Part shown: positions 9,424 to 9,533 of the stretch, in pieces
Layout: each line of letters starts with the position of its first letter
Position numbering within the stretch: position 1 is the stretch's first letter
IMG/VR virus record: IMGVR_UViG_3300013101_003214
DNA: 13,150 bases
Direction: 5' to 3' (one strand)
DNA from: a virus
Made by a program: the position numbers and the translations under genes
The notes under the pieces: generated by a model
Databases searched by the model: none
What the model was told of the DNA's origin: nothing
The model's input: only the letters and a program-made list of their open reading frames with translations

Positions 9424-9533
9424 CTCATCGAGGTCTGTATCAAGACGCCCAGGCGTCGAGTTAACTCCGCCAGGTGGGAGCCGAGAGGCGTCTTACCACC
9501 AGGGAGACGTAGGAGCATAGCCTACCGATGAGG
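9424..9533 (+). other. oversized (110 nt) tRNA-like element: perfect 7-bp acceptor, D-arm and T-arm enclose a roughly 60-nt insert
   Basis: ctcatcg (9424-9430) / cgatgag (9526-9532). D-stem gtct/agac. T-arm gtagg-AGCATAG-cctac. Insert carries hairpins and the palindrome GAGTTAACTC (9458-9467). No clean anticodon arm. Confidence 0.3.

Follow-up and report, generated by a model that had tools for sequence, protein, structure and literature searches.

A tRNA-shaped element with a candidate uL1-binding hairpin in the tRNA array of a huge-phage-like virus

The 13,150-base stretch of DNA analysed here (the window; IMG/VR virus record IMGVR_UViG_3300013101_003214) carries a tRNA-shaped element at 9423-9533 on the plus strand, within a long tRNA array. 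It has the acceptor helix, D arm and T arm of a tRNA and, where an anticodon arm would stand, an insert holding two hairpins, A and B. The element had been pointed out in an earlier note on this DNA; the observation is real, and its features are confirmed at their positions (Table 1). It is not a decoding tRNA. We tentatively favour, at a little under an even chance, the reading that it is a tRNA-scaffolded RNA, predicted to bind ribosomal protein uL1 as a decoy or recruiter and to be released by tRNA-processing enzymes. Slightly more loosely still, we propose that the virus in this way encodes a ribosomal-protein operator mimic on a tRNA scaffold, by which it may alter the uL1/uL11 homeostasis of the host or borrow uL1 as a chaperone.

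A tRNA framework without an anticodon arm

The earlier note had described, from the letters alone, a perfect 7-bp acceptor helix (CTCATCG, 9424-9430, with CGATGAG, 9526-9532), a D arm GTCT-GTATCA-AGAC, a T arm GTAGG-AGCATAG-CCTAC and a 10-bp palindrome GAGTTAACTC inside an insertion of roughly 60 nt. All of these are present: the acceptor helix reaches 8 bp when C9423-G9533 is counted, the T arm abuts the 3' acceptor strand, the palindrome lies at 9458-9467, and the insertion measures 62 nt (9447-9508). A repeat of CCAGG, given there as two copies, exists in three (9449, 9470 and 9499). All 17 framework pairs (8 + 4 + 5 bp) are Watson-Crick pairs in tRNA register, and, as in class I tRNAs (RF00005), the acceptor helix is followed after 2 nt by the D arm and is abutted by the T arm. 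The element occupies the 115-nt gap between tRNA-Asp and tRNA-Ala(GGC), on the same strand as all tRNAs of the array, with a spacer of 0 nt from tRNA-Asp (1 nt for the 7-bp version of the helix) and of 4 nt to tRNA-Ala.

The rarity of such a framework depends on how strictly it is defined. A strict version (7-bp acceptor, 2-nt spacer, 4-bp D stem with a loop of 6-12 nt and, directly next to the acceptor, a 5-bp T stem with a loop of 7 nt, all Watson-Crick, total length 60-220 nt) was counted 32 times across 3000 dinucleotide shuffles of the window, both strands included, or ~0.01 per window, and a looser version admitting G-U pairs appeared 132 times in 150 shuffles, or ~0.9 per window, and is not rare. 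The whole element folds at -44.9 kcal/mol (z = -3.5); the insert by itself is without unusual stability (z = -1.5).

The same 17-nt T arm is found in ARAGORN-called tRNAs of four other phage arrays, as well as in a tRNA-like gene that ARAGORN does not call (Table 1). Because its T arm is identical to that of genuine phage tRNAs, the core of the element is tRNA-derived. Its T loop, AGCAUAG, departs from UUCRANY and is a natural variant in phage tRNAs: in a second scan it occurred on other T stems too (tRNA-Val, tRNA-Met and tRNA-Ala), always paired with a D loop AAUCAGNA that replaces the usual GG-containing loop. The D loop of the element, GUAUCA, is without GG and contains AUCA, as do the AAUCAGNA loops. 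Judged by these two loops, the element's elbow is of a covarying variant type that occurs naturally among phage tRNAs. The earlier note's suggestion of a tRNA-derived regulatory RNA therefore stands in its first half, with the framework intact and the T arm identical; for the regulatory part, the insert offers a candidate mechanism that the note had not seen, a uL1-site mimic.

As an observation in its own right, the combination of D loop AAUCAGNA with T loop AGCAUAG in a class of phage tRNAs (Ile, Asn, Ala, Val and Met; the loci with the same T arm in Table 1, and L040 3697-3772, L042/L044 and L043) suggests a covarying alternative elbow. In tRNA-His of the window (11079-11152) the T loop, AGCAUUA, is related, and GG is likewise missing from the D loop. 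We know of no description of this tRNA class.

As the earlier note had seen, no 5-7-5 anticodon arm fits the insert. When all hairpins possible in 9440-9515 were scanned, none with a 7-nt loop did better than a 4-bp stem (loop ACCACCA), and the sole long stem in the insert, of 7 bp, closes a 9-nt loop and invades the T stem. On the strand of the element, ARAGORN called nothing, whether run with its defaults, with a search for introns or with the threshold lowered to 80 or 70%, and Rfam returned no tRNA-clan match on the element up to E 10. The unusual geometries of tRNA-Sec and allo-tRNAs (8/5, 9/3, 8/4) were considered and rejected: a stack of 8 + 5 bp is possible, but the element lacks an anticodon arm, shows no 7-nt loop containing UCA and has no tRNA-Sec match.

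The earlier note had also offered an intron-containing tRNA, and this is not supported: there is no Infernal/Rfam match to a tRNA or an intron up to E 10 and no supporting deletion variant. Among 1254 single-deletion variants, ARAGORN made 0 calls at the default and 95% thresholds. At 90%, 7 variants pass, and controls with a shuffled insert reach at least 7 passes in 25 of 60 cases. One of the deletions, of 9454-9491, yields a tRNA-Val(UAC) at the 90% threshold, with a CCAGG/CCAGG stem that contains an A-A mismatch. The same controls, which keep the acceptor, D and T arms and whose deletion variants are often accepted at 90%, support the quality of the framework indirectly, because ARAGORN accepts it once any passable anticodon arm is supplied. 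A scan of the element for bulge-helix-bulge motifs found 0, compared with ~1 per shuffle under relaxed rules. A group I intron is unsupported because 62 nt is far too short and Rfam finds no group I signature in the element up to E 10.

Further possibilities were tried and dropped. Recent paralogy with a tRNA of the window gave no convincing match, a 9-mer in common with tRNA-Gln being at chance level; an antisense target inside the window came down to one 11-mer complement, also at chance level; and nothing relevant was found for a promoter or terminator role of the element.

Hairpin B and the uL1 binding site

In the predicted fold, a 3-bp CCC/GGG remnant of an anticodon stem branches into hairpins A and B and is followed by the 4-nt equivalent of a class I variable loop (Table 1). 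The remnant is predicted from the second-best suboptimal structure (-46.6 kcal/mol) and from a constrained fold (-45.2 kcal/mol), the minimum free energy being -46.9 kcal/mol; the fold compatible with a uL1 operator costs 1.7 kcal/mol over the minimum and keeps the tRNA-like junction of 3-bp stem and 4-nt variable loop. The segment that provides the 3' strand of the remnant, CCAGGGAG, looks like the Shine-Dalgarno sequence found after rplA operators (in L063, ACCACCAGGAGG).

Hairpin B is probably a genuine member of the uL1-site sequence family, and the decisive piece of sequence evidence for this is where its exact matches lie in other genomes. We searched a collection holding one genome per species (185,579 species, 596 Gb) with the 20-mer GGTGGGAGCCGAGAGGCGTC (9473-9492). 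It has 2 matches, both in nusG-rplK spacers of Lachnospiraceae metagenome-assembled genomes (MAGs), 30 nt upstream of the L11 start. In a collection of this size ~1 match is expected somewhere at random, and by our own estimate the chance that a random match lands in an rplK leader is of the order of 1e-5. With one Lachnospiraceae rplK leader, hairpin B is identical over 21 nt. In Firmicutes and Proteobacteria, the nusG-rplK spacer is the location of the operator by which uL1 represses the L11 operon, and this operator mimics the uL1 site of 23S rRNA (PMC3616713, PMC10931766). In rRNA and mRNA alike, uL1 reads P1 (helix 77), J1-2, the base of P2 (helix 78) and J2-1, the last being longer in rRNA than in mRNA (PMC5689012; crystal structures).

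Hairpin B presents these parts in sequence and in order. Its P1 is equivalent to helix 77, ends in two G-C pairs and is at the same time the GUGG/CCAC of the descriptor-matching Lachnospiraceae operators that we collected; the junction is asymmetric, J1-2 being GA and J2-1 longer, with G as its first and A as its last nucleotide; and P2 opens with a G-C pair directly after J1-2. In E. coli 23S rRNA (AGGUGGGAGGC ... GCCGACCUUGAAAUACCACC), the 9-mer AGGUGGGAG (2119-2127) and the 7-mer UACCACC (2172-2178) are the same as in the phage, and GGUGG/CCACC corresponds to 2120-2124 with 2174-2178 by our own count on rrlB, which we take to be helix 77. The E. coli rplK leader reads CACGGGGAGCC-UCUCAGA-GGCGUUAUUACCC, with the core GGGAGCC-UCUCAGA-GGCGUUAUUACC, and the phage hairpin reads CAGGUGGGAGCC-GAGA-GGCGUCUUACCACC, with the core GGGAGCC-GAGA-GGCGUCUUACC, so that GGGAGCC...GGCGU..UUACC is common to both.

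Further rplK and rplA leaders were gathered through L11 homologues, and nine of them share the pattern GUGG-GA-(helix)-G....A-CCAC, with a P2 that covaries among operators (GCC/GGC, GGGA/UCCC, GGGC/GCCC, GGAA/UUCC, GAU/AUC). The architecture of hairpin B is common to 8 rplK/rplA leaders; a descriptor written from the gathered operators finds all Lachnospiraceae operators tested as well as the phage hairpin, the E. coli leader failing on the 4th P1 pair, and has 0 matches in 630 kb of other loci, the T4 region included. A home-made covariance model was built from 6 operators, with the phage hairpin and the L046 leader, which looks identical to it, excluded; in it the phage hairpin is the top non-seed match with 13.9 bits, compared with 13.3 and 11.3 bits for held-out true operators and 11.1 bits for the best background match. 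A broader covariance model was dropped: MAFFT misaligned the E. coli operator, and model-based alignment drew in doubtful sites inside nusG.

In Lachnospiraceae, uL1 operator-like hairpins stand before rplK, rplA or both (L074 446-479; L072 505-539 and 1005-1039; L053 947-981), and one rplK-side copy has GGAAG instead of GGGAG.

Operators for uL1 precede rplK and/or rplA and are small, weakly conserved and absent from Rfam (PMC3616713, PMC10931766). Rfam 15, in which we found no uL1-operator family, leaves true operators unrecognised (Lachnospiraceae and the E. coli rplK leader), and its negative result on the insert therefore says little about hairpin B. For hairpin A, no match beyond 8-mers was found to E. 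coli rRNA (rrn operon) or to the rplK leader, and a role as an rRNA mimic was rejected on the rrn operon matches of at most 8 nt.

Proposed role, rival explanations and genomic setting

As a plausible mechanism, the element would be a tRNA-derived gene for a non-decoding RNA that is co-transcribed with the huge-phage tRNA operon. It retains what processing enzymes would recognise, an acceptor helix stacked on the T arm and a D arm closing the elbow, and therefore cleavage by RNase P at its 5' side, together with trimming of the 3' end, should free a discrete, stable RNA of ~110 nt, tRNA-shaped, from the poly-tRNA transcript. In this RNA, the anticodon arm would be replaced by the 3-bp stem branching into two hairpins, with hairpin B reproducing the uL1 site through its helix-77-like GGUGG/CCACC, its 5' GA joiner, its second helix and its 3' joiner G....A, and the RNA might then bind free uL1. 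The most likely effect would be titration of uL1 from the host L11-operon operator, uncoupling the synthesis of L11 and L1 from rRNA supply; alternatively, uL1, an RNA chaperone, could be recruited to the phage tRNA transcript. Strong chaperone activity is reported for uL1 (PMC1920258). Because mRNA-type sites bind uL1 more weakly than 23S rRNA does (PMC10931766), the decoy would be expected to compete only with the host rplK/rplA operator, with derepression of L11 and L1 as the expected effect.

Should this prove right, a trans-acting operator copy made by a phage would be a new viral interference with ribosome biogenesis or its feedback control. To our knowledge, ribosomal-protein operators are familiar from bacteria and archaea only as leaders that act in cis on the genes they control, and in the open-access literature we found no report of a phage-encoded mimic of one. 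Even if uL1 is not bound, the element shows that standard tRNA finders miss tRNA-derived genes in huge-phage arrays.

Several points weigh against the uL1 reading. The motif statistics are modest: the descriptor has 44 matches in 2000 shuffled windows (~0.02 per window), the covariance model gives the phage hairpin an E-value of 0.1-0.2, and Smith-Waterman comparison with the operators of E. coli or Lachnospiraceae falls short of significance (114 of 400 shuffles do equally well), with the best E. coli operator match in the window falling at the element. Such statistics fit the published remark that the uL1 site is small and hard to track (PMC3616713). J2-1 has 6 nt in the phage versus 7 nt in every collected bacterial operator. 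No rplK, rplA or any open reading frame (ORF) follows the element, which places the hairpin outside its normal context; because only tRNAs follow, the element is not a cis-acting rplK/rplA operator. Hairpin A is without explanation if the RNA serves to bind uL1, and the weaker binding of mRNA-type sites noted above counts on the same side. Expression, processing, uL1 binding and the physiological effect are what we infer, and for expression and processing this, too, is a point on the debit side.

The searches for relatives add to these points. The element is identical in all 3 assemblies that hold the locus, and no diverged relatives of the phage were found, so that a single sequence is at hand. 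No second copy of hairpin B was seen in phage collections, and tblastn revealed no phage-encoded uL1 in related huge phages. Exact and anchored patterns in IMG/VR brought up no relative of the element, Rfam, at the gathering threshold and up to E 10, no known family for the element or for the insert alone, and blastn of 9250-9800 against phages matched only tRNAs. The homologue of the vault-like protein (see below) in LR756500 has no tRNA array adjoining it, and relatives of an endolysin-like protein belong to ordinary phages without tRNA arrays. Three IMG/VR pattern matches to hairpin B lie within coding sequence and look like chance, INPHARED blastn with hairpin B gave only matches with E = 7 inside lysin genes, and the tblastn matches to uL1 look like bacterial contamination or unrelated records; all were set aside.

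Of the explanations that compete with uL1 binding, a dead tRNA gene, which the earlier note had also raised, would have lost its anticodon arm to an insertion, possibly a captured piece of an rplK/rplA leader, and would now be a functionless remnant. The array is indeed rich in irregular or broken tRNA pieces (the orphan 3' half at 9307-9345 and non-canonical tRNAs that neither detector calls), the insert by itself has no unusual stability, the sequence that follows hairpin B (ACCACCAGGGAG) is similar to an rplA-leader operator with its Shine-Dalgarno sequence, as a captured fragment would be, and three identical copies in assemblies provide no evidence of conservation. Decay nevertheless fits poorly with a framework in which 17 of 17 pairs are Watson-Crick while real tRNAs of the array tolerate G-U pairs and mismatches, with an element that abuts its neighbours as precisely as working tRNAs do, and with an insert that leaves a tRNA-compatible junction of 3-bp stem and 4-nt variable loop; recent capture from Lachnospiraceae is also at odds with a phage of ~58% GC, the donor-like rplK loci being AT-richer in the spacers read. 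We keep a dead gene as an unlikely rival. It is somewhat unlikely as well that the element, as a stable tRNA-like RNA or a structured spacer, does something else and that hairpin B is like a uL1 site by coincidence; under this heading we count, jointly, processing punctuation, a decoy for host enzymes that target tRNAs (a nuclease or a modification enzyme), and an RNA of the T4 rnaC/rnaD type. T4 rnaC and rnaD hold the same kind of position and have no known function, the array gaps at 11157-11218 and 12061-12228 likewise hold helix-closed structured segments, the motif-only statistics are weak, and the intact elbow with its AGCAUAG T loop might itself be the functional part. What such a coincidence would have to accommodate is that the only exact 20-mer matches in 596 Gb lie in rplK leaders and that P1, J1-2, P2 and J2-1 come in the right order with the sequence of helix 77.

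We consider it very unlikely that the element is a functional decoding tRNA from which an intron or insertion of 38-62 nt is removed after transcription. The tRNA-Val(UAC) that emerges at the 90% ARAGORN threshold when 9454-9491 is deleted is missing from the ARAGORN calls in the array, which speaks for this reading; its stem holds an A-A mismatch, however, no variant passes at the default or 95% thresholds, the shuffled-insert controls do equally well or better in 25 of 60 cases, and a Val(UAC)-like tRNA is already present at 10917-10990. The element has no bulge-helix-bulge motif and no group I signature (Rfam E up to 10), for which 62 nt is too short, and no splicing enzyme is encoded nearby, the PF11645 ORF being of the DNA homing-endonuclease type. 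A mere chance combination of inverted repeats in an inter-tRNA spacer draws on the high frequency of frameworks with G-U pairs (~0.9 per shuffled window) and can practically be dismissed, given that the all-Watson-Crick framework comes up ~0.01 times per window, that the T arm is an exact copy of the T arm of real phage tRNAs, and that the element fills the inter-tRNA gap exactly.

The window is an entire Joint Genome Institute (JGI) metagenome contig, and the same sequence is found in one ENA assembly and one Logan assembly. Its tRNA array runs on the plus strand from 8147 to the window end, with 27 tRNAs called by ARAGORN and further ones seen via Rfam or by manual inspection alone, ~35 tRNAs in total; the tRNA-Ala(GGC) region downstream of the element is miscalled by ARAGORN as a tRNA-Ser at 9557-9646. 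The window also encodes thymidylate kinase, an HNH endonuclease, Cpn10, a transfer-messenger RNA (tmRNA) and a major-vault-protein-like protein. In the phage collection, the vault-like protein matches only the uncultured huge phages LR756500, LR756501 and LR756503, at 36-38% identity; it has more than 1000 homologues at ~40% identity, many from Myxococcota-like MAGs and huge phages, and in a database of 5.8 billion proteins its best identity is at most 43%, apart from the phage itself. On this protein evidence, the source phage is of a poorly sampled huge-phage-like lineage.

Upstream of tRNA-Asp, the array is interrupted by an ORF of PF11645, the family to which, as we take it, the tRNA-intron homing endonuclease I-Ssp6803I belongs. 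Directly after this ORF comes an orphan tRNA 3' half, for which no fitting 5' half was seen upstream; the pair is reminiscent of segB in the T4 tRNA cluster. Downstream of tRNA-Ala, the 176-nt gap at 9609-9784 (plus strand) is full of tRNA pieces in an unusual order: a T-arm minihelix at 9620-9645, then a T arm CCUGG-UUCGAAU-CCAGG, a 9-bp hairpin GGGCUCCC-UAGC-GGGAGCC and a D arm UAGCUUAACGGCAGAGC. A circularly permuted tRNA, or the YrlA tRNA-like module, has its parts in this order, and the Rfam matches are weak only (YrlA 19.5 bits, permuted tmRNA 21.8 bits). Among the inter-tRNA spacers of the plus strand, 11157-11218 is closed by a long-range helix TCGCGAC/GTCGCGA, 12061-12228 by a helix of 13 bp that has a single mismatch and encloses 168 nt, and 10514-10617 has stems containing GCTAGC; a tRNA framework is present in none of the three. 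At the window end, 13078-13150 (plus strand) has an 11-bp closing helix around an anticodon-arm-like hairpin with the loop GUCCAAA (z = -3.5), and may be a further irregular tRNA-like element, possibly cut by the contig end.

Table 1 Features of the element, its neighbourhood and tRNAs with the same T arm. Positions refer to the window unless another locus is named.
Feature	Position	Strand	Detail
Acceptor-like helix, 5' strand CCUCAUCG	9423-9430	+	Perfect complement of 9526-9533; pairing probability 0.95-1.0
D arm GUCU/GUAUCA/AGAC	9433-9446	+	4 Watson-Crick pairs, 2 nt after acceptor strand; pairing probability 0.66
CCC, 5' strand of 3-bp anticodon-stem remnant	9448-9450	+	Pairs with GGG 9502-9504; predicted fold only
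Hairpin A GGCG-UC-GAG-UUAA-CUC-CGCC	9451-9472	+	Holds palindrome GAGTTAACTC; pairing probability 0.7
Hairpin B, candidate uL1-site mimic	9473-9500	+	Second hairpin of the insert
Hairpin B P1, GGUGG/CCACC	9473-9477 with 9496-9500	+	
Hairpin B J1-2, GA	9478-9479	+	
Hairpin B P2, GCC/GGC	9480-9482 with 9487-9489	+	Cap GAGA 9483-9486
Hairpin B J2-1, GUCUUA	9490-9495	+	
GGG, putative 3' strand of stem remnant	9502-9504	+	Within CCAGGGAG
AGAC, 4-nt class I variable-loop equivalent	9505-9508	+	Position in the operator-compatible fold
T arm GUAGG/AGCAUAG/CCUAC	9509-9525	+	Non-canonical T loop; pairing probability 0.83
Acceptor-like helix, 3' strand CGAUGAGG	9526-9533	+	Then UUUU, then tRNA-Ala; no encoded CCA
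tRNA-Asp(GUC), upstream neighbour	9347-9422	+	Encoded CCA; ARAGORN; Rfam 45.9 bits
tRNA-Ala(GGC), downstream neighbour	9538-9608	+	G3:U70; Rfam tRNA 61.2 bits
PF11645 ORF (PD-(D/E)XK endonuclease)	8905-9306	+	E 4e-23; within the tRNA array
Orphan tRNA 3' half	9307-9345	+	T arm GGAGG-UUCGAAU-CCUCU, acceptor strand, ACCA; directly after PF11645 ORF
Trp(CCA)-like tRNA	8525-8598	+	Weak D arm and T stem; missed by ARAGORN and Rfam gathering threshold
Val(UAC)-like tRNA	10917-10990	+	C33; missed by ARAGORN and Rfam gathering threshold
Arg(ACG)-like tRNA	12699-12770	+	Missed by ARAGORN and Rfam gathering threshold
Arg(CCG)-like tRNA	12772-12843	+	6-bp anticodon stem; missed by ARAGORN and Rfam gathering threshold
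tmRNA, normal type	2274-2605	-	Rfam
Major-vault-protein-like gene, 885 aa	4636-7293	-	Shoulder domain PF11978, E 5e-21
Same T arm: tRNA-Ile(GAU)	L005 12480-12553		
Same T arm: tRNA-Asn(GUU)	L024 2367-2442		
Same T arm: tRNA-Ala(UGC)	L025 and L029		
Same T arm: tRNA-like gene without ARAGORN call	L007/L014		Also a phage tRNA array

Comparison with known systems

Set beside class I tRNAs of the phage subclass with AAUCAGNA and AGCAUAG loops, the element has the same acceptor helix of 7 (+1) bp, the same 2-nt spacer and the same geometry of D and T stems. It differs in having no anticodon arm, a length of 110 nt, a D loop of 6 rather than 8 nt and no encoded CCA, and in lying below every detection threshold.

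By genomic context, its closest relatives are rnaC and rnaD of phage T4 (the species 1 and 2 stable RNAs), whose roles were still unknown according to a 2010 review (PMC3014915). They are 139 and 119 nt long and stand directly after tRNA-Arg, in a cluster that holds a free-standing homing endonuclease; rnaD begins 1 nt after tRNA-Arg, and the element likewise abuts a tRNA. Features that rnaC has in common with the element are a closing helix, inserted hairpins and, close to the 3' end, a T arm (CCGGG-UUCGAAU-CCCGG). Both T4 RNAs differ from it in their poorer acceptor helices and other folds; no sequence similarity to either was found, and the uL1 descriptor has 0 matches in the T4 region.

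The closest functional relatives of hairpin B are the L11-operon operator and H77-H78 of 23S rRNA, the base of the L1 stalk. Unlike the L11-operon operator, the phage hairpin does not stand upstream of rplK, rplA or any ORF and lies inside a tRNA-shaped phage RNA; the head of helix 78, which docks the tRNA elbow, is absent from hairpin B and likewise from mRNA operators. The element thus fails as a tRNA, for want of an anticodon arm, and as a cis operator, by its context, and in its predicted structure it conforms to the definition of a uL1 site.

A tRNA-like module fused to a functional module is familiar from tmRNA, from the bacterial Y-RNA-like YrlA and from the engineered tRNA scaffold: the tRNA-like domain of acceptor and T arm gives processing and stability, and the other domain does the work. 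The element differs from tmRNA in having no tag ORF or pseudoknots, and from YrlA, whose tRNA-like module lies internally, with the Ro-binding stem formed by the ends; Rfam finds no match on the element. If the uL1 reading holds, the element would provide a first functional paradigm for the non-tRNA stable RNAs of phage tRNA clusters, such as T4 rnaC and rnaD. The engineered tRNA scaffold, in which, as here, the RNA cargo takes the place of the anticodon arm, would then have a counterpart in nature.

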